Source: Verrucomicrobiota bacterium
GTDB taxonomy: Bacteria > Verrucomicrobiota > Verrucomicrobiia > Chthoniobacterales > UBA6821
Direction: 5' to 3'
Length of the DNA stretch: 25,358 nucleotides
NCBI GenBank assembly: GCA_008932965.1
Contig: WBXG01000023.1
Span: 1-25,358, forward strand
The position numbers and the translations under genes are program-made. The notes beneath the pieces are model-generated. The model had not been told where the DNA came from, searched no databases, and worked only from the letters and a program-made list of their open reading frames with translations. Each line of letters begins with the position of its first letter. Positions within the stretch are counted from its first letter, which is position 1. Shown in pieces: positions 1 to 20,861 of the stretch.

Positions 1-133
1 ACAAGGCGGGCGAAGGATTGGGATGCCGGGCTGTATGTTTCATACTGTCCAAATCACAATTCGAGACCAACGCAGTAATGATGAGCTTTCCACAAGCCGT
101 AATAGATTTAGTGTGAAATATGCAGGTTAAGGC
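1..133 (+). repeat. Copy A (5' end cut by window edge) of the multi-copy structured intergenic element, short form; candidate ncRNA or MITE-like repeat
   Basis: acaagg-N3-gcgaaggattg-N3-atgccgg-N-ctgtatg (1-37) matches copy C at 15142-15177 and, without the atgccgg and ctgtatg segments, copy B at 6431-6470. catactgtccaaatca (41-56) is identical to 13454-13469. gagctttccacaa (83-95) is identical to 6515-6527. The 3' end gtgtgaaatatgcaggttaagg resembles the 3' ends of copies C and D. It ends 27 nt before recF. Confidence 0.75.
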
Positions 134-160: not shown

Positions 161-1228
161 GTGAATATCCTCACCAGACTAACGCTCCAACATTTCCGCT
201 CTTTTTCCTCAAAATCTCTTGAGCTACATCCTGGACTCAACTTCATCATTGGCCCCAATGCTCAAGGGAAGACCTCTCTTCTGGAAGCAGCGTGTGTCTT
301 GCTACGGCTCAAGTCTCCCCTCACGCATACGCTCACTGAGGCAATTCGCTTTGGAGAGGAAGCATTTTTTTTAGCAGGAAGCTATGGAGGCAAAGAACTT
401 TCGATGCGCTTTTCACCTGGTGAGAAGGTCAAACGTCTACTCCAGATCGACGATGTCACTCAGCAAGAGACAACAGATTATTTAAGCACAGGTTGTATTG
501 TTTGGTTTGGAAGCGATGATCGAGAAATCATCAATGGCCCAGGAGAGCGACGTCGCCGTTTTTTGGATAGTGCAGGATTGCAACTTAGTAATGACTATAG
601 AAAACACTTGAAATTTTACGAAAAGGCCCTTCGTTCACGTAACTTGGTGTTGCGGAAACAGCGACCTCGACGTGAGGTAGAGGCTTACAATTCGATCCTA
701 ATAGAAAATGGAGATGCACTCATGAATCTGCGAGCACATCTTTGCAAAGCCTTAGCACCACAAGCTGCTCAGGCTTGCCATTCTATTTCACAAGAAAAAC
801 TAATGCTGCACTACCAACCAGGGGCATCCATGACCATGCGTGAGGCATTAGAAAATTCTCTAGCCAAAGAAATAGAACTCGGGATGACTTTAGTGGGCCC
901 TCACCGTGATGAGCTTCTTATTAGACTGAATGATATTCCAACTGCCACCTTCGGCTCGGAAGGGCAACGGCGTACCGTAGCCTTGTCATTGAAACTTGGT
1001 TTAGCCAATTTACTCCACCAAGAAAAATTAACCCCACCACTTCTCTTGCTCGATGACGTCTTTGGAGAACTTGATCCAGAACGTAGAAGTGCTTTACTTG
1101 CAGGATTGCCCCTAGAAGCACAAGCTCTCCTTACTACGACTGATATGGAAGGAATAGAACTACCTCAAACAACAACAACTCATTTTTTTGCTCTTAAAGA
1201 TGAAATATCTGAGCTATCCCTTTTTTAA
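161..1228 (+). CDS. recF: DNA replication and repair protein RecF
   Basis: 355-aa ORF with a GTG start. It has an N-terminal Walker A (GPNAQGKTSLLEA), the SMC-like RecF layout, and a C-terminal Walker B/D-loop (LLLLDDVFGELDPERR). Confidence 0.92.
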   Translation: MNILTRLTLQHFRSFSSKSLELHPGLNFIIGPNAQGKTSLLEAACVLLRLKSPLTHTLTEAIRFGEEAFFLAGSYGGKELSMRFSPGEKVKRLLQIDDVTQQETTDYLSTGCIVWFGSDDREIINGPGERRRRFLDSAGLQLSNDYRKHLKFYEKALRSRNLVLRKQRPRREVEAYNSILIENGDALMNLRAHLCKALAPQAAQACHSISQEKLMLHYQPGASMTMREALENSLAKEIELGMTLVGPHRDELLIRLNDIPTATFGSEGQRRTVALSLKLGLANLLHQEKLTPPLLLLDDVFGELDPERRSALLAGLPLEAQALLTTTDMEGIELPQTTTTHFFALKDEISELSLF

Positions 1229-3364
1229 CATCATTTTTTGATGCTTTAAGGCACGCTGGGGAAGAATCTCTTGAATCAATTTTTTCCAACGTTCTCGTGT
1301 AGCCTCTTTAGTAAAATTTTTTACCGAGCAAAATCCATTATTAATGAGTCTCGAGCGGAGTTCCTCACTCTCTTTGAGTCTTCGGAGCTGCACAAAAAAT
1401 TCCTCCAGCGAGGTTGCCACAAGATAGTCTTTACCTGGGTGTCCATCGCAGGCATAGGCCACATCACTTCCTCCAATAAAAGGAACTCCTGCAAGCCAGG
1501 CATTGTAGAGCTTCGTTGCTGGTTTATGATAATGGGGTGATTTTGAAAAATCACGAATACCAATCGCACAATCCACTTGACTATAATCATTCCATTCTGA
1601 GGGAGGCGCTATTGTAAAAGTAAGCCCAAGCTCTTGTTCCAGCCGATGATGCCATGCCGTTGAAATTAATTCCATGGCAAGATTTTGTTTTTCCCCGAAA
1701 AAAACAATGTTCTTAAAACAAGTCCCTCGTTGAGGATTCCGAGGAATCAAGCGGGATTGTGGCCAATGCGGTATAAAAAAAGCATTACGAAGCCTCTTTG
1801 CTTGGACCCGATTCTGAACAATATAAAAATGAGCAGTGGGATGGGGTGAGGCATCAGCCACAATATCCACCAAAAAAACATCAGGTGATAATGGGGGATT
1901 TATTCCAAAAGTGGGATCAGTAGCAGAAGTAAGAGCAAGCATAATACCACATTTTTTGGGAGCCATGGATAGATCGCAAGGAATGCTGGCCTCTTTCAAA
2001 AATTCTACTGTTTGATAAATCCAACTATGGCTACAGGTGAACTCTGTTTCAGGACTGATTTTCCCTTCCCTCCAAGCCTTTAAACACTTTTCTTGAGGTA
2101 ATAATGGCTCTGGAAGAAAAAAAGAAAGATTTTGCCATGGCTGTTGAAATTCTTCCCATAAAAGAGCTGCAATTTTTTTTCTGTGAAAAGACTCTCGATA
2201 CCGCGCCACCCAACTCCAATAAAAATTGAAAAGATGGTGATGATTTTTTTCTTTTTTTAGAACAATTTGTTGCCACGCATCAATGATCCCATCTGCTTTC
2301 TTTGTGACTTTTTTCCAGTGAAGTGAAAGAGCTTTTTTCTGTTGATAGTACAATTCAAGGCTCTTCAAATAGCTTTCATAGGAATATTCGGACCAATAAG
2401 CAAGCTCTCGAGCGGCCTCTCTTTGTTTTCCATGAACCATTGAGGCAACTTCAGCGCGTTTTTTCATTGCTTCCACTGTTGCATTCAGGGCATGGGTGAG
2501 GAGCTCCCAAACCTCTTGGGAACTAGCAGAAAAGAGTTCCATGCGATTTATCTCAATATCACAAGCAAGACTTGCAGCATGAGCAGCCAAGGACCAATCG
2601 ATCGCACATTCCTCCTCCTTTTCCTCGGCAGCTTGGGCGGCCTTGATTCTCCATTGGAAAGCAGAAGTGGCAAAATTAAGCACTCTATTCCAATGATCAT
2701 GATTTTTTTTATCACTTTCTAATAGTGGTGCCTCACACTTGCGTTGAAAGATAGCAGACAGAAGTGCTGAGTAAGCTACTAATTTGCAACGATAGATAAG
2801 CACCTCATCGTCCAAGGAGCGTGTTCCCATTTTAGCAATTTTTTGAGCATATAAAAACCAGCTCTGTGCCTCATCATAGAGGCAATTAGTCTTTGGAGCC
2901 TTTTCTAGATATTTTGTTGCTACTTTTTGAACCTGAGCAATTTCATATTCTAAAAAAGGGGAGTCGCTTACCTGAGAAACATTCATCCAATAACGGTAGT
3001 TCCAGACAGCTTCTCTCAATTCCTCTTTTTCAAAAAACCAGTATGGAGAAAGAGAAGAGAGGGATTTTTTCTCAAGAGCCTTCGCTAAACGATAACGTAC
3101 CTCTTGAGTTTTTCTGAGTGCGATGACTCTTGCATTGAAATCCCCTGGATTGGAAGTAAAGAGAATTTCATTTTCGTGACACTGCCTGGAGTAATTTCTA
3201 GCAGCATCGGAAGCGATTCTCCAGCACAGGGCGTTACTTTTTTTTCCTTCTGCTAGTGCTCTTAGAATCTCATGAGAATAGAGAGAGAGGCTTTTTTTAT
3301 TGGAATAAGGCTCTTTTAATAATGAGTTTTGTAATTCAAATGACTTCATGCATGAAAAATTCAA
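1214..3364 (-). CDS. Unknown two-domain protein: N-terminal Trp-containing all-helical repeat region (paralogous to the 3455-4648 product) plus a C-terminal alpha/beta domain that may be GT-B glycosyltransferase-like
   Basis: 716-aa uninterrupted ORF. The N-terminal ~400 aa align with the neighbouring 397-aa protein (ALCWRIASDAARN vs ALCWRIVADAACN; RIKAAQAAEEKEEECAIDWSLAAHAAS vs RIKAAEASHQKDEVTAIKWSLAAAAAA). The C-terminal ~300 aa contain IVFFGEKQN...KPATKLYNAWLAGVPFIGGSD, reminiscent of the nucleotide-sugar-binding half of GT-B enzymes; that similarity was judged by eye only. Its 3' end overlaps the recF 3' end by 15 nt, convergently. Confidence 0.7.
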   Translation of the reverse strand: MNFSCMKSFELQNSLLKEPYSNKKSLSLYSHEILRALAEGKKSNALCWRIASDAARNYSRQCHENEILFTSNPGDFNARVIALRKTQEVRYRLAKALEKKSLSSLSPYWFFEKEELREAVWNYRYWMNVSQVSDSPFLEYEIAQVQKVATKYLEKAPKTNCLYDEAQSWFLYAQKIAKMGTRSLDDEVLIYRCKLVAYSALLSAIFQRKCEAPLLESDKKNHDHWNRVLNFATSAFQWRIKAAQAAEEKEEECAIDWSLAAHAASLACDIEINRMELFSASSQEVWELLTHALNATVEAMKKRAEVASMVHGKQREAARELAYWSEYSYESYLKSLELYYQQKKALSLHWKKVTKKADGIIDAWQQIVLKKEKNHHHLFNFYWSWVARYRESFHRKKIAALLWEEFQQPWQNLSFFLPEPLLPQEKCLKAWREGKISPETEFTCSHSWIYQTVEFLKEASIPCDLSMAPKKCGIMLALTSATDPTFGINPPLSPDVFLVDIVADASPHPTAHFYIVQNRVQAKRLRNAFFIPHWPQSRLIPRNPQRGTCFKNIVFFGEKQNLAMELISTAWHHRLEQELGLTFTIAPPSEWNDYSQVDCAIGIRDFSKSPHYHKPATKLYNAWLAGVPFIGGSDVAYACDGHPGKDYLVATSLEEFFVQLRRLKESEELRSRLINNGFCSVKNFTKEATRERWKKLIQEILPQRALKHQKMMLKKG

Positions 3365-3371
3365 ACAGCTT

Positions 3372-3444
3372 CTTAACCCGGATATTGTATACTAAACGTA
3401 ACAAGGCTTCGCATGATGAATCATCATATAATATTCAGAGCAAG
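3372..3444 (-). repeat. Mini-copy H of the intergenic element (5' arm joined directly to 3' arm), minus-strand orientation
   Basis: On the minus strand it reads CTTGCTCTGAATATTATATGATGATTCATCATGCGAAGCC, about 70% identical to the 5' arm of copy C. This is followed by ...GTTTAGTATACAATATCCGGGTTAAG. ATATCCGGGTTAA is identical to the copy D 3' end, and GTTTAGTAT is shared with the copy B 3' end. It fills the 90-nt gap between the two paralogous genes. Confidence 0.6.
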
Positions 3445-3454
3445 GTATTTTTTG

Positions 3455-4648
3455 CTAACTAAAATAGACTTCTTTTGATGAAGGATCAGAGATCATTCTT
3501 CTATATTTTTTCTCTGCATAAAGAGCTCTTCTCTGCTGGTAGAGACGAGCAAGAGTGAAGCTTCGCTTGGTTTCGAGCTTCTTGAAATGTTTCCAAAGAG
3601 AGGCAACATGCTTAGCACCTTTTGTAGCTATTTCCCACTCTCTATTTGCTAGGGGATAGGATGACATGTAGGCTTCAATGACTTTGGTATAACAGTCATA
3701 ATAGTGTTCACTCCAAAAGGCAGCGTGATCCGAAAGAATATTTTTTTTCTTTAATGAGGTACTGTTTTTTCGCAGTTGCATTGTCTCCTCTGCTGCATGG
3801 AGCAAGTTATTCCAATGAGTAATAAGGCACTGATCTCCTATGGGGAATAATTCAAGCAGTTGAGTGTGAGCCTCTCTAACCTGGGCAGCTGCAGCTGCTG
3901 CTAAAGACCACTTTATAGCAGTTACTTCATCCTTCTGATGGGAAGCTTCTGCAGCCTTGATCCTGGCATAAAAAGCCTCCTCTCCATAATGAGCTGCCTC
4001 TTTCCAATGATATAATAGAATTTCATTATTCCTCGATCGAGAGGCCTCTACATGAAGATACGCAATGGCTACCTCAACAGCAGCACAGGCGGTTATTCGA
4101 AGGTGATAAGATTCTAGCAATGCTCTAGCAATTGATATGTTTTGAGCTTTTTTAAAATAGTTTGCTGCCTCTTCTGCAAAAAAAGAGACCTCTGGGGCGA
4201 GAAGCCTATATTTTTCAGCTGCCTGCTGCGTTTGCTCTATTTCGCTCTTCCATAAGTGAACACTTCTGGTCACGGATTGAAGAATCAAAGCAGCATAGCT
4301 TTCTGCTATCTCTTCCATTCCCTCTTGATTAAAAATCGATTCCTCAGTCCAAATTTGGCTAGAAACAGGCTGTTTATTAAGATGAGAACGAGATTTTATC
4401 CTGGACCCATCAAGATTCGCTATTTCCTCTTCACGATCAGCGTGAAAAATCCGGGTTAATGGTATTTCGTGATTCAGCCCATGAGCTAAAAAGGAACCTG
4501 GCAAGGAAATAATCTCGTTAGACTGATTCTCTTTAGATGCATTGCATGCAGCATCAGCAACAATTCTCCAGCAAAGTGCTAAAAGATCACAATGATTTCC
4601 CGTAGCTTTAAGAGCCTTATTACGATAAAAAAAGAGCGTTTTTGTCAA
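3455..4648 (-). CDS. Unknown Trp-containing helical-repeat protein, paralog of the N-terminal region of the 1214-3364 product
   Basis: 397-aa ORF, colinear with the N-terminal ~400 aa of the 716-aa neighbour. Shared blocks include ALCWRI, RIKAAxA...AIxWSLAA and FWSEHYYDCYTKVIEAY vs YWSEYSYESYLKSLELY. I recognise no known domain. Confidence 0.7.
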   Translation of the reverse strand: MTKTLFFYRNKALKATGNHCDLLALCWRIVADAACNASKENQSNEIISLPGSFLAHGLNHEIPLTRIFHADREEEIANLDGSRIKSRSHLNKQPVSSQIWTEESIFNQEGMEEIAESYAALILQSVTRSVHLWKSEIEQTQQAAEKYRLLAPEVSFFAEEAANYFKKAQNISIARALLESYHLRITACAAVEVAIAYLHVEASRSRNNEILLYHWKEAAHYGEEAFYARIKAAEASHQKDEVTAIKWSLAAAAAAQVREAHTQLLELFPIGDQCLITHWNNLLHAAEETMQLRKNSTSLKKKNILSDHAAFWSEHYYDCYTKVIEAYMSSYPLANREWEIATKGAKHVASLWKHFKKLETKRSFTLARLYQQRRALYAEKKYRRMISDPSSKEVYFS

Positions 4649-4707
4649 AGTTATTATTTTTTAAAATACTCTTGCAAATTTAGTTATTCATACCACTTTT
4701 ACTATAA

Positions 4708-4744
4708 AGCCCAGATGAAATATCTGGGCTAGATTTTCTTTTTG
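4708..4744 (+). terminator. Intrinsic-terminator-like hairpin in the divergent region upstream of dnaA
   Basis: Perfect 9-bp stem agcccagat / atctgggct (4708-4716 / 4722-4730) with loop gaaat, followed by agattttctttttg. No + strand ORF lies upstream. gatgaaatatctggg also resembles the 3' terminus of the repeat family (gtatgaaatatccggg). Confidence 0.35.
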
Positions 4745-6377: not shown

Positions 6378-6558
6378 TACCCTAATATTTTATACTGAAT
6401 CCTTATGAGTCACCGTTTAAGGCGTATTAATACAAGGCTAGCGAAGGATGGTCATACTGGACTGCAGGAATAGATACCGCCGCAATGATTATCTGAGACC
6501 AGCGTAGTTGCCATAGAGCTTTCCACAAACCGTAACAGGTTTAGTATGATACATCGGG
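6378..6558 (+). repeat. Copy B of the structured intergenic element, short form, in the dnaA-dnaN spacer
   Basis: The terminal helix accctaatattttatactgaatc (6378-6400) pairs with aggtttagtatgatacatcgggt (6536-6558), including several G-U pairs. Internal blocks shared with copies A and C are attaatacaagg, gcgaaggat, gagaccagcgtag and gagctttccacaa. Confidence 0.8.
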
Positions 6559-13121: not shown

Positions 13122-13237
13122 AGTATCTTTAATAAGTAAAATGATTTTAAATTAGGTCGTAAACAATATGGCTGATTTTACAATTAATACAATCGGGACC
13201 TTTCATTCTTCTCCATACAGGGGGAATGTTTTTGATT

Positions 13238-13258
13238 AAAAATGGAAGCTTCCTTCCA
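13238..13258 (-). terminator. Weak candidate intrinsic terminator on the minus strand, downstream of the permease gene and copy D
   Basis: The minus strand reads TGGAAG-GAAG-CTTCCA followed by TTTTTAATC. The stem is only 6 bp, so support is weak. Confidence 0.3.
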
Positions 13259-13271
13259 AAAATGGATTTTC

Positions 13272-13542
13272 TAACCCGGGTATTTCATACTGATCGTGAC
13301 GAGCTAGCTACAAAGACTGATGGGGTACCACGGAGGTCGGGAGACCGCAGGGGAGACTGCCCTGGCTTTAAGGGGGCAGCCCTGAAAGGGCGAGACGAGC
13401 GGGAGCGAGCGAGTCAACGCAGGCGAGCATTTTGATGTAGGGCTGCATGTGTACATACTGTCCAAATCAAAATGTGAGTCTAACGCAGCATCCATCTGGC
13501 TTCACGGCTTACGCAGTAGATCGGTATGAAATATCCGGGTTA
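13272..13542 (+). repeat. Copy D of the structured intergenic element, long form with the 81-nt GC-rich insert at 13339-13419
   Basis: The terminal helix 13272-13295 / 13519-13542 forms 24 consecutive pairs (22 Watson-Crick plus 2 G-U on the + strand). The 3' half is colinear with copy A (catactgtccaaatca, taacgcag, gaaatat..gggttaa). The GC-rich insert is 78/81 identical to 20627-20707. The last 3 nt coincide with the permease stop codon. Confidence 0.85.
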
Positions 13543-15033
13543 AAGCTCATCCTCAAAGGAGAGACCCTCTGTTTTATATTTTTTACAGAACTGAATAAAA
13601 CGAACACTTGTAATAAAAAGGTAAAAAAGGAATGAAACAACTCCTACATAAATGAGATTTTGATAAACGTAGATCATTGCCAAGTAACCCATGAAAGGAG
13701 TAATGAGGCCTAAGAGGATTAAAAAATTATTCTTCTTGGTTAATTGCACTCCTCCATAAATCACCATGAGTACCACTAAGGATATAATCATCATAAATAA
13801 ATCATGTTTTGGAAGAGTCGTCATAATAAGCCCAAGAATCACAAAAACAATAACTCCATAAACACGTGTCTTTGGCTTAATAGCTCCCATACTGATAGGT
13901 GCAGCCATATAACCTAGAAGATTGTAACCTGTAACCACAACCATGAGAGACGACCAGCTTTCAGCATTCCAGAGAACAACAGCAATCATCACCCAATTAA
14001 TGAGCAGAGAACGTCTGCAAAGATTATAAATAGGATTGAGTTTTCCTATAGACCATTGTGGCATCTGACCTTCTGCAGCCATGGCATAAAACATTCGAGC
14101 CGAACCTCCAAGATAGGCATATCCAGTACCTGAAGGGCTAATGACACTGTCAGCCATTAGTAAAATCACAAGAAAATGGAGCCCTAGGAGTATTGCTAGA
14201 TTTAATAAGGGAGAATGAAAATTCAGCGAACTCCATCCCGCTTGTAACATTTCGTGAGGAACAGCTCCCATAAAGGCAAGTTGTAATGCCATATAGACAA
14301 ACATTACGATGACGATCGAAAGCACGATGGAGAGGGGAACATTTCTTTTTGGCTTTTCTATTTCACTAGCAAAGGCCACGGCTAACTGAAAACCGTTAAA
14401 AGAGTAAATGAGACCAGCTCCTACAATCGCACCAAGAGCCGATCCAGCAGTATAGACATAATGAGAGTCTAATTGAAAATTACTTGTATCAAATCGTGCA
14501 ATAAGAAAAAGAACGATCGTAAAAATGGGGGTAAAGATTTTTAATGCTGTGACGATATTATTTACTTTGGCAAGTAATTTGATTCCGTAAAAATTGACAA
14601 TTAAGTATAAAAACAAAATACCCAGAGCAAACAATTTTCCATAAATCGTTAACCCATGATCATTCATGAGATCGGTATTTTTAAGAGCAGCGGATAAATA
14701 TTGAGTAGTAGCCTGCGCTTCAGTAGCAACACAAACCATAATGCCAAACCAGTTAGCAAAGGCAAAAGGCATTCCAAAGATGGAATTATGAGACAAGGCA
14801 CTTGAGCGTGTAGTAGCACCACGGACTGGAAAGACGGAAACAACTTGAGCCAAGCAAAGCCCTACAGGCATCACAAGTAGGGCAGCTAAGAACCAGGCAA
14901 GAAAAGAATAATTTCCAGCAAGTTGAGCATTGAGCTGTGCACTAAAGAGCCACCCAGATCCGACCATTGCCGTCGCACTTAAGGCGGTAGCGCTCAAAAG
15001 GGATATTTTTTTGTGGTTCGTTTTTTCAATCAT
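13540..15033 (-). CDS. Amino acid/polyamine/organocation (APC) superfamily permease
   Basis: 497-aa hydrophobic ORF with about 12 predicted TM segments. The N-terminal TM1 region SATAMVGSGWLF is typical of APC permeases. Confidence 0.85.
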   Translation of the reverse strand: MIEKTNHKKISLLSATALSATAMVGSGWLFSAQLNAQLAGNYSFLAWFLAALLVMPVGLCLAQVVSVFPVRGATTRSSALSHNSIFGMPFAFANWFGIMVCVATEAQATTQYLSAALKNTDLMNDHGLTIYGKLFALGILFLYLIVNFYGIKLLAKVNNIVTALKIFTPIFTIVLFLIARFDTSNFQLDSHYVYTAGSALGAIVGAGLIYSFNGFQLAVAFASEIEKPKRNVPLSIVLSIVIVMFVYMALQLAFMGAVPHEMLQAGWSSLNFHSPLLNLAILLGLHFLVILLMADSVISPSGTGYAYLGGSARMFYAMAAEGQMPQWSIGKLNPIYNLCRRSLLINWVMIAVVLWNAESWSSLMVVVTGYNLLGYMAAPISMGAIKPKTRVYGVIVFVILGLIMTTLPKHDLFMMIISLVVLMVIYGGVQLTKKNNFLILLGLITPFMGYLAMIYVYQNLIYVGVVSFLFYLFITSVRFIQFCKKYKTEGLSFEDEL

Positions 15034-15084: not shown

Positions 15085-15272
15085 GCTAGCCTGAATAATT
15101 TATACTAAATCATCATGAGGCGCCGTGCAAAGCTCATTAATACAAGGGGGGCGAAGGATTGTAATGCCGGACTGTATGATTATAAGAACCATGAAGCTAT
15201 TCAATTCTGATTCAGTATCAAACAGACTTTCTCAAGCCACAGAAGAATTTGTATAAAATATGCGGGTCTACC
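15085..15272 (+). repeat. Copy C of the structured intergenic element, short form
   Basis: The terminal helix gctagcctgaataatttatac (15085-15105) pairs with gtataaaatatgcgggtctacc (15251-15272). attaatacaagg-N4-gcgaaggattgtaatgccggactgtatg matches copy A positions 1-37 closely. It lies between two minus-strand genes. Confidence 0.8.
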
Positions 15273-18270: not shown

Positions 18271-18792
18271 ATGAATATGATCTCAGAGGCTTATCTCTCT
18301 CTTCTCGAAGCACTCCGTGTTAGTTGTAAATTACCAGAATTCCCAGATCCGCTTCCTTCAACTCAACTCGATTTAGAGTTGGAAAACGGACCTACAGTTA
18401 CTATCGATTTTGAAGAATCAGGCGAACTTGTGGTCATTTTTTCTCAAATTGGAACTTATTCTCCTGAGCAAGAATTAGAAGTTTTAAGAAAAATTGCAGA
18501 AGCTAATTTTCTCTGGACATCTAGTGGTGGAGCGACTCTGAGTGTTCGTCCTGAAATTCATACAGTCTACCTTGCATATCAAACACCTGCCTCCAGTTTA
18601 ACTGGTCTCGACTTTATTCAACGTGTTGAAAAATTCGTCGAGATAGTTCTTCAATGGCAGCACACTCTCTCTCAAGGCACTCTTGAAGAACCCCTCAATC
18701 AAGATACTAACGAATCCTCTTTAAACCCATTAGAAGCAGAAAAAGAGACGGCGCTCCCCACGCCCGGCAGTAATAATTACATTCTGGGATAA
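18271..18792 (+). CDS. Type III secretion chaperone-like protein (CesT/SycE-type fold) with an acidic C-terminal extension
   Basis: 173 aa, acidic. The pattern LLEAL...L.LD.E.G.TVTIDFEE.GELVVIFSQIG......E.E.LRKIAEANFLW..SGGATLSV......VYLAY......L....F...VEKFVEIVLQW matches the architecture of class I T3S chaperones. This is assigned by pattern recognition only. Confidence 0.55.
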   Translation: MNMISEAYLSLLEALRVSCKLPEFPDPLPSTQLDLELENGPTVTIDFEESGELVVIFSQIGTYSPEQELEVLRKIAEANFLWTSSGGATLSVRPEIHTVYLAYQTPASSLTGLDFIQRVEKFVEIVLQWQHTLSQGTLEEPLNQDTNESSLNPLEAEKETALPTPGSNNYILG

Positions 18793-18803
18793 ACACTCCC
18801 AAC

Positions 18804-18890
18804 TAACCTGAATAGTTCTTACTGATCGTGACAAGGAGGTCGTGAAGCCAGATGGATACTGCGTTAAATTTTCCGTTTCCCTTCAGGTTA
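18804..18890 (+). repeat. Mini-copy G of the intergenic element: 5' arm of about 60 nt plus a short 3' end
   Basis: Closed by taacctgaa / ttcaggtta (18804-18812 / 18882-18890). Positions 18805-18865 are colinear with the copy D 5' arm at 13273-13333 (aacc.g..ta.ttc.tactgatcgtgac...aag.c.gatgg..tac). It lies between the convergent ends of the chaperone-like gene and sufE. Confidence 0.7.
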
Positions 18891-20490: not shown

Positions 20491-20560
20491 GCAGGGTGCA
20501 GTGCTAGGAACGAGCCCACAGATGCACGGGAAGAGGCATCCATCTGACTTCTCGGCTTAG
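20491..20560 (+). repeat. Partial copy F (3'-half fragment) of the intergenic element, directly abutting copy E
   Basis: gcatccatctgacttctcggcttag (20536-20560) matches copy D 13488-13512 at 22/25. gcagggtgcagtg resembles gtagggctgcatgtg of copy D. No terminal helix partner was found. Confidence 0.5.
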
Positions 20561-20804
20561 CCCGCCTATTTTATACTGGTTCATCGCGAGGCGCCGCGAA
20601 TCCTGATGCAGAAACCACAGGCGGTAGGGAGACCGCGGTGGAGACTGCCTTGGCTTTAAGGGGGCAGCCCTGAAAGGGCGAGACGAGCGGGAGCGAGCGA
20701 GTCAACGAAAGCTATTGATTACCTAATACTGCAGAAGAAATTTGAATCTAACACAGCAGAGATGAAGATCTTTCAAGGCGCAGTGGAAGTATCCTGAAGT
20801 AAGC
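20555..20804 (+). repeat. Copy E of the structured intergenic element, long form with the 81-nt GC-rich insert at 20627-20707
   Basis: The 5' arm tattttatactggttcatcgcgaggcgcc resembles copy C (aatttatactaaatcatcatgaggcgcc). The insert is 78/81 identical to 13339-13419. The 3' half gaatctaacacagcag...ctttcaaggcgcag is colinear with copies A and D. The outer closing pair is gctta / taagc (20555-20559 / 20800-20804). Confidence 0.8.
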
Positions 20805-20861
20805 AAGCAGCCTCATTACATTACTTGAAACAATCTCAATCGTTTTCAAGAGATTGAATGA

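Follow-up and report, generated by a model that had tools for sequence, protein, structure and literature searches.

A palindromic repeat at the end of a Verrucomicrobiota permease gene: a probable miniature inverted-repeat element carrying a structured passenger module

What keeps the two ends of a short repeat complementary is a question that may be answered at the level of RNA or of DNA. It is raised here by copy D of a repeat found in a 25,358-nucleotide contig of a Verrucomicrobiota bacterium (WBXG01000023.1, assembly GCA_008932965.1); this whole stretch, referred to below as the window, contains five large copies (A to E) of the repeat together with several fragments. The arms of copy D, 13272-13295 and 13519-13542, are 24 nt long, lie 223 nt apart and are 92% complementary (22/24) according to a repeat finder, and the two positions that are not Watson-Crick pairs, G13280-T13534 and T13291-G13523, are both G-T on the + strand and A-C on the minus strand. 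An earlier reading of the letters (the original prediction) took this pattern, and the persistence of the helix with different letters in other copies, to suggest selection on a + strand RNA fold, and expected A-C and G-U mismatches to be equally frequent across many copies if inverted repeats were simply decaying. Its account of the helix, with 22 Watson-Crick and two + strand G-T pairs over 24 positions, agrees with the repeat finder and with the sequence. It is also the case, as predicted, that the last 3 nt of the element are the stop codon of the permease, for which the open reading frame (ORF), 13540..15033 (-), ends on 13540-13542, and that copy C holds the helix with other letters, position 13 being C-G in D, T-G in B and T-A in C. 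That the terminal pairing of D is far above chance is confirmed, because these ends recur on more than 90 elements.

We consider it probable, at about four chances in five, that copy D is a bacterial miniature inverted-repeat transposable element (MITE) of the Correia/RUP kind, belonging to a new family in the Verrucomicrobiota with an IS5-like or IS630-like target signature. The features of such elements are found in the D family, namely inverted repeats, small size, no coding capacity, dispersed copies, presence or absence at a given site, and a target duplication; the internal ORFs of D have no Pfam match. The 24-bp helix is adequately explained as 21 bp of transposon inverted repeat plus 3 bp of target duplication. 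Its outermost 3 bp (TAA/TTA) are part of the target-site duplication and lie outside the element proper, the inverted repeat of which is formed by 13275-13295 and 13519-13539 (21 bp).

The basal element of the family is about 178 bp long, ends in CCCGSATATTTCATACTG and is an imperfect palindrome along its entire length; the same consensus is present on both ends of 91 elements. When the conserved internal pattern of the repeat was scanned against one genome per species, 40 stretches were recovered, all of them in two metagenome-assembled genomes (MAGs), Chthoniobacterales Tobar2m-G38 and Spartobacteria Kiruna bin-02438, and many of the matches lie at contig ends of these MAGs. A profile search of the 40 loci and the window gave 140 matches, of which 63 are full length. 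The family is abundant in this freshwater Chthoniobacterales lineage of the Verrucomicrobiota. Its palindromic nature is evident from weaker profile matches on the opposite strand that span the full model, with about 60 of the 85 fold-back positions being Watson-Crick pairs. In the alignment of the 63 full copies, the left and right halves occur in several types that have been shuffled at a conserved apex. Copy D, at 265 bp, is a long form of the family; D and E (long form, about 265 bp) carry an extra GC-rich module, here termed module X, at the same left-arm site, whereas in the long form from Kiruna the module is reversed and lies just past the apex. The parts of copy D, and the hairpin just beyond it, are as follows.

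13271..13274: left copy of the target duplication, CTAA, as indicated by the flank statistics and the L031/L014 nested case described below; under a 2-bp model only the TA is duplicated.
13275..13295 (+): left terminal inverted repeat, CCCGGGTATTTCATACTGATC; the family consensus is nearly invariant at positions 2-14.
13296..13323 (+): left-arm body of the 'L3' type, from the 63-copy alignment (modular halves) and the long-form alignment.
13324..13417 (+): passenger module X, four-hairpin and GC-rich, ending in GAGTCAA, matched by covariance model R1.
13418..13518 (+): remainder of the left arm, apex palindrome (about 13443-13461, CTGCATGTGTACATACTG) and right-arm body of the 'R4' type.
13519..13539 (+): right terminal inverted repeat, GATCGGTATGAAATATCCGGG; at G13523 it has the inherited variant of position 18.
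13540..13543: TTAA, the right-hand target copy, which holds the permease stop TAA (13542-13540, minus strand).
13243..13258 (-): terminator-like hairpin followed by a T-run, just beyond D; likely the permease terminator, displaced by the insertion.

Duplication of a TA-centred target is supported by a nested case: at locus L031 a basal element breaks a copy of module X (...GCCTT TA [GCCCGG...CCGGGC] TA GGCAG...), whereas at locus L014 the same module is unbroken and reads ...GCCTTTAGGCAG... Amongst the 91 unique elements, 72 have TA on both flanks, 83 have a pyrimidine ahead of the left TA and 88 have a purine past the right TA. The first base of the element is dimorphic and the bases outside the TA match as direct repeats in about 74% of cases: the base at left position 1 is the same as that at right +1 in 51 of 69 elements (Fisher p 2e-4), and 49 of 66 elements agree between left -1 and right position 1 (Fisher p 1.5e-3). 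Mutual information between left and right positions is likewise conspicuous at position 1 alone, because of the target duplication. The most economical interpretation of these flanks would be a 4-bp YTAR duplication, with the element proper starting at the invariant CCC. Alternatively, the duplication might comprise only the 2-bp TA (IS630 type), with R...Y as the outermost bases of the repeat, and this fits the nested case without mismatch. The target copies of D itself are CTAA (13271-13274) and TTAA (13540-13543), and under either the 2-bp or the 4-bp model the outer 3 bp of the helix derive from a near-palindromic target.

Relatives of the window in which the permease is 85-88% identical and the order topA-permease-purF is conserved have spacers of 82 nt and 29 nt, as opposed to 418 nt in the window; the close permease homologues are named Chthoniobacterales. 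No repeat is present at the sites of D or C in these relatives, from which it follows that D is an insertion. The ancestral 4-mer at D cannot be read, the spacers of the relatives being too diverged. Because insertion occurred within a 4-mer containing the TAA stop of the permease, the protein is unaltered.

The ends of the element would be expected to bind a transposase that is encoded elsewhere and acts in trans. Judging by the type of target, this would be a DDE enzyme, either from the IS5 group (4-bp YTAR) or from IS630 (TA), and an autonomous partner would carry a transposase gene bounded by CCCGGATATTTCATACTG ends. Insertion sequences of the IS5 group insert at YTAR with a 4-bp duplication. 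Copy D, for its part, probably rides passively in the permease mRNA, within the 3' untranslated region (UTR) on the minus strand, and would there form a long hairpin in the manner of other bacterial MITEs. The long form, D included, may have arisen by gain of the unrelated four-hairpin module of about 90 nt in the left arm.

The main alternative, and the one originally proposed, is that D is a structured RNA of the + strand with a closing helix under selection, in which only changes compatible with wobble pairing on that strand are tolerated. Positions 1-23 of the 91 oriented elements were tabulated, giving 1708 Watson-Crick, 177 G-U, 61 A-C and 147 transversion cells, so that on the + strand wobble pairs exceed A-C by 2.9:1, and thus the equal frequencies expected of simple decay are not seen amongst copies. 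However, the excess sits at three right-arm positions, 15 A>G (32 copies), 18 A>G (28 copies) and 19 T (40 copies), and arises because these three markers of right-half types are inherited. One of the two wobble pairs of D, T13291-G13523, is such an inherited variant (position 18 of the right arm, common to 28 of the 91 copies), and the other, G13280-T13534, is found in D alone, G13280 being a private A>G change. If distinct derived transitions are counted instead (positions 2-20), 15 alleles produce G-U and 14 produce A-C, with no significant difference in copy number (Mann-Whitney p=0.23). Young transitions at Watson-Crick fold-back sites in four subfamilies are similarly balanced (60 of G-U type vs 52 of A-C type, p=0.51), and the whole fold-back has 406 G-U and 359 A-C. 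Thus the original prediction is partly supported: the asymmetry holds amongst copies but, counted as events, the changes are symmetric. The asymmetry amongst copies is real, yet it is no evidence of RNA-level selection.

Individual positions point both ways. The series C-G, U-G, U-A at position 13 in D, B and C is what an RNA helix might be expected to show, and across the 91 elements this position has 1 G-U, 2 A-C and 1 compensated pair. Position 6, which is G/C-dimorphic, has a transversion mismatch in 28 of the 91 elements, which argues against a helix held by selection on RNA pairing, as does the origin of its outer 3 bp in the target duplication. The RNA of 13272-13542 is predicted to fold more stably from the + strand (-112.8 kcal/mol) than from the minus strand (-94.2 kcal/mol), a difference in favour of the + strand, but the z-scores against shuffles are similar (-5.6 and -4.8, respectively), so that the two strands of D are about equally unusual once composition is allowed for.

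The genomic setting also bears on the RNA alternative. The orientation of the elements is random with respect to flanking ORFs (upstream 39 sense and 34 antisense; downstream 29 and 37), and consensus scans found no promoter-like site in or beside D. Copy D sits between the permease stop codon and the minus-strand terminator-like hairpin at 13258-13243, and the minus strand is therefore the expected transcript, predicted as the 3' UTR of the permease. The hairpin is likely to be the permease terminator, now 270 nt from the stop codon through the insertion. It and a second terminator-like hairpin, 13204-13238 (+), point towards one another in the stretch separating D from purF. Rfam gave no match to the window at gathering score and only chance-level matches to D at E values up to 10, and thus nothing relevant was found in it that would make D a member of a known RNA family; there is no tRNA or tmRNA in the window.

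Module X is in sense on the + strand of D, which is a further point in favour of + strand RNA, and the long forms can be oriented by it. In the Tobar and window type the helix then has 19 G-U and 2 A-C (the nested L031 case being excluded), whereas on the module-sense strand of the Kiruna-type long form it has 9 G-U and 15 A-C. The wobble strand tracks the ancestry of the arms rather than the strand of the module. Taking these observations together, we regard + strand RNA selection on the helix as unlikely and at best weakly supported. One feature of D does suit the spirit of the RNA idea: the structure of the internal module on its + strand is conserved in a strand-specific manner.

A strand bias could also originate in DNA, if replication or transposition leaves one strand of the element free to fold back into a hairpin and G-T, the least destabilizing mismatch in DNA, is tolerated there only. 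The palindromic nature of the whole element would suit such a single-stranded stage, as would the residual G-T excess described below, the shared orientation of the five large window copies and the direct orientation of 11 of 12 tandem pairs (hand count). A target duplication, however, marks double-strand cut-and-paste transposition by a DDE enzyme; single-strand HUH elements produce none, whereas DDE cut-and-paste does. Moreover, only 23 of 37 non-tandem neighbouring copies in the MAG contigs have the same orientation, with 14 opposite (hand count), and the event counts given above are symmetric. The tandem bias has its own explanation in direct dimers. These are present with one common flank at five or more loci, in units of about 365 bp; head-to-tail dimers, each of two different subfamily members with a single YTAR flank, occur at unrelated loci (L005, L010, L019, L029, L035, L030, L037 and L042; for example L035 6984-7353) and are 77-91% identical. 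Judging from their sequences, dimers appear to transpose as units, which accounts for the direct orientation of the tandem pairs. The single-stranded explanation is accordingly held to be very unlikely. The five window copies share one orientation while their flanking genes lie on both strands, which is probably chance; the GC-skew profile of the window is uninformative on replication direction.

Some observations weigh against the MITE reading and should be set beside it. The window, about 270 kb of MAG loci and related metagenome contigs, material that consists of fragmentary MAG and metagenome DNA, yielded no transposase with matching ends; mobilization in trans is consequently deduced from anatomy alone. 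The single nested case, L031, fits TA exactly and YTAR with one mismatch, whereas the flank statistics are more in line with 4 bp. Amongst the eight transition alleles present in five or more copies, seven produce G-U (p=0.07), which is equally a point for the RNA alternative, and G-U is enriched at paired sites (60 vs 52) relative to unpaired ones (20 vs 38; p=0.02), a contrast that is confounded by the purine-rich composition of the unpaired parts. There is thus a weak residual signal of strand asymmetry that a purely double-stranded DNA model leaves unaccounted for.

In the same material, long-range end pairs, orphan ends and repeated segments of more than 400 bp yielded partial copies and dimers only, and no repeat longer than the dimer units was seen in the sampled DNA. 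ORFs beside orphan ends were considered as candidate transposases and proved to be RecJ, a short-chain dehydrogenase, a glycosyltransferase and one protein without assignment. An ORF between end-like sequences at 3374 and 4458 of the window, considered as the parent transposase, is not a transposase.

The anatomy of D as a MITE is ordinary, and it is the passenger module that is the unexpected part. Module X in D (13324-13417, +) is GC-rich, about 94 nt long and 93% identical to its copy in E (20611-20705), whereas the arms around it are only about 70% alike in D and E. A scan of metagenome contigs for its 3' tail, CGAGCNGGNGCGAGCGAGTCAA, found it in at least 118 stretches (L043-L160) from peat, soil and lake samples and from other genomes, which are GC-rich; only about ten of the matches listed for the tail lie inside this MITE. 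A covariance model, R1, built from five sequences, gave 137 matches in 100 sources and recognizes the module of D over its full length with 65.9 bits (E 4e-19) and that of E with 70.7 bits. The layout is that of four hairpins: P1 with a GGGA loop, P2, P3, and P4 with a GGGN loop and tandem G-A pairs, followed by (G/A)UCAA. In other words, a bulged hairpin capped by GGGA is followed by a (U/G)AGA junction, two short hairpins (with loops that are mostly GNA or GNRA) and a purine-rich tail, which ends invariantly in ...GCGAGCGAGTCAA. The tail itself is a hairpin, GAGC-GGGN-GCGAGC, with tandem G-A pairs, and in some copies it is swapped for a fully Watson-Crick stem, GCUCUC-GGGA-GAGAGC. The first three hairpins form in most single sequences folded alone, and circularly permuted orders of the hairpins exist.

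Covariation was assessed in the alignment fitted to the R1 model, its sequences having been gathered by way of the tail. In this, 90.2% of cells are paired, double changes occur at 18 of 18 pairs, and the covariation score is 0.474; shuffled alignments score 0.133, and sliding the partners gives no more than 0.053. The motif strand has 63 G-U and 28 A-C. Searches of known families gave nothing comparable, in that Rfam 15 had no match on 28 loci carrying the module, BLAST against plasmid and phage collections found none, and a literature word search for the tail also returned none. Module X is a strongly covarying motif that is catalogued by no Rfam family and is lodged in unrelated mobile hairpins. 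Apart from the MITE, copies are found in the loop of GTAG-type hairpins resembling repetitive extragenic palindromic (REP) sequences, in the arrangement GGCGTTT[X]AAACGCC, and convergent inverted doublets, 13-40 nt apart, are present in seven contigs. No fixed 5' flank is seen. At locus L076, positions 217-1152 hold seven tandem units of about 140 nt with the module, beside a tRNA-Arg(CCT) at 1203-1274 (-). Each unit opens with the 3' end of this tRNA in reverse complement (TGTCCCCGGCGGGAA) and continues with the module at the position of the T-loop and then TCGAACC..., as though the module had been placed within degenerate 3' halves of a tRNA; the units were considered as tRNAs and rejected, ARAGORN calling none even with the module removed.

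Since module X lies inside closing stems in other phyla (the REP-like hairpin just mentioned, and T-arm-like flanks in L076) and forms a side branch in the fold of D, the helix of D might be imagined as a clamp that presents it, MITE arms and module together making up one functional RNA or DNA unit. Three observations make this highly improbable: 75 of 96 scored family members are without the module; it lies at two different sites in two long-form subfamilies, on opposite strands relative to the types of arm; and the module of D itself has a partly decayed P1 stem. It may have entered this MITE at least twice, and as a tentative interpretation, possible rather than probable, module X could represent an undescribed cross-phylum class of four-hairpin elements, either a functional RNA or a single-stranded DNA substrate of some recombinase, that spreads inside hairpin repeats. 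In RNA form it could be, for example, a protein-binding or catalytic 3'-UTR element. Module X tends to sit after a gene on the same strand (38 vs 17, p=0.006), and these upstream genes are housekeeping genes (folC, kamA, clpB, rlmN and similar); between clustered copies there are genes for a pseudouridine synthase and prepilin-type proteins. GNRA loops and the wobble bias would fit an RNA. A single-stranded DNA substrate of the REP/RAYT or IS200/IS605 type would be an equally good fit, in view of the C-GNA-G triloops, the tandem G-A pairs, the inverted doublets and the TCAA end, which is invariant.

Other possibilities for the module were rejected. A hammerhead-like CUGAUG beside it is part of the MITE arm, is unconserved outside and has no support from Rfam. 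Pairing of GAGUC in the tail with GACU before P2 is contradicted by copies in which the P2 strand is altered and the tail is the same. A link to IS200/IS605 or RAYT was also set aside, given the housekeeping neighbours, the lack of a TnpA-like match and the lack of a Y1 or TnpB gene adjoining the copies examined; a tblastn search with an approximate IS200 TnpA query gave nothing better than E 0.8.

A review (PMC2229807) covers bacterial MITEs that have 24-bp repeats and TA ends, give transcripts in the form of hairpins and include in-frame copies. The closest systems are the Correia or NEMIS elements of Neisseria, which, like the D family, are non-coding, have inverted repeats (about 24-26 bp in Correia) and TA termini with a target duplication, and have copies near gene ends. 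They are about 100-160 bp long and their transcripts fold into a long 5'-3' hairpin (PMC2229807). The D family has no sequence similarity to them, occurs in Verrucomicrobiota, is 178 or 265 bp long and palindromic throughout, has a likely 4-bp YTAR duplication, and in some copies holds a foreign structured module. Correia subtypes arise from mixed end variants and internal deletion, and Correia elements are subject to RNase III processing and contain promoter and IHF sites. RUP of Streptococcus pneumoniae is mobilized by IS630-Spn1, has TA insertion and ends like those of the insertion sequence, and tends to go into other mobile elements (PMC2229807). Nested insertions are a feature of the D family too; unlike RUP, no cognate insertion sequence was found for it, and the flank statistics point to 4 bp, not 2 bp. 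Likeness to the IS5 group, comprising a Y-TA-R target and an apparent 4-bp direct duplication, is one of target signature alone.

Rickettsia palindromic elements (RPE; PMC2229807) and in-frame enterobacterial repeats come to mind for a family fragment that lies in frame in ORF 3455-4648; unlike RPE, this is a single, partial in-frame case in an uncharacterised ORF. The fragment, 53 nt of the left arm at 4406-4458 of the window, reads ...LTRIFHADREEEIANLDG... in this ORF (-), which has no Pfam match and has an N-terminus paralogous to that of the adjacent 716-aa ORF 1214-3364 (-). As for module X, it resembles REP/REPIN (RAYT) and PATE (IS200/IS605) sequences in being short, multi-copy, hairpin-rich and intergenic, often in convergent inverted doublets, and it is like REP and PATE in that one of its ends is invariant (in the module, ...GAGTCAA), its C-GNA-G loops are stable and its strand is biased with respect to the genes upstream. 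It differs from REPs in lacking the 5' GTAG signature, and in having four hairpins over about 90 nt where a REP has one; in addition, no RAYT, TnpA or TnpB gene was present beside any copy examined. REP families are usually genome-specific, whereas module X is conserved across phyla.

The MITE matters mainly for annotation: it occupies several percent of the window, can sit on stop codons and within ORFs and, with many copies at contig ends, breaks MAG assemblies, and its hairpin alone would pass for an RNA gene to an observer. It should be noted that a count of G-U against A-C in repeat copies may look convincing (3:1) while mirroring three inherited variants. Module X is present in many uncultured bacteria of soil, peat and lakes and is the item worth following; if it is indeed a functional RNA or a new mobile DNA signal, then how small structured modules hitch-hike on transposons becomes a testable question.

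The other large copies in the window are as follows.

1..128 (+): copy A, basal form, truncated by the start of the window.
6380..6558 (+): copy B, which is of the basal form at about 179 bp and separates dnaA from dnaN.
15090..15266 (+): copy C, also basal, with topA and the permease on either side, the site being empty in relatives.
20561..20806 (+; end approximate): copy E, a long form in which module X occupies 20611-20705 and the right repeat has decayed.

Smaller remnants are also present. At 4703-4733, a unit of about 27 nt is reduced to the two inverted-repeat tips flanked by TA, and at 3374-3447 there is a degenerate copy, about 70 nt long, that has lost its interior; both are extreme deletion derivatives. 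Solo 3'-end fragments of D-type copies lie at 18804-18866 (-), abutting the 3' end of a SufE-like ORF just past a CesT-family gene, and at 20536-20559 (+), directly ahead of copy E. Between 161 and 7781 the gene order is recF, two paralogous ORFs without assigned function (on the opposite strand), dnaA and dnaN. MITE copies precede recF and separate dnaA from dnaN, so that repeats are dotted over the origin region. The CesT-family chaperone gene, 18271-18792, is unusual in a free-living verrucomicrobium.

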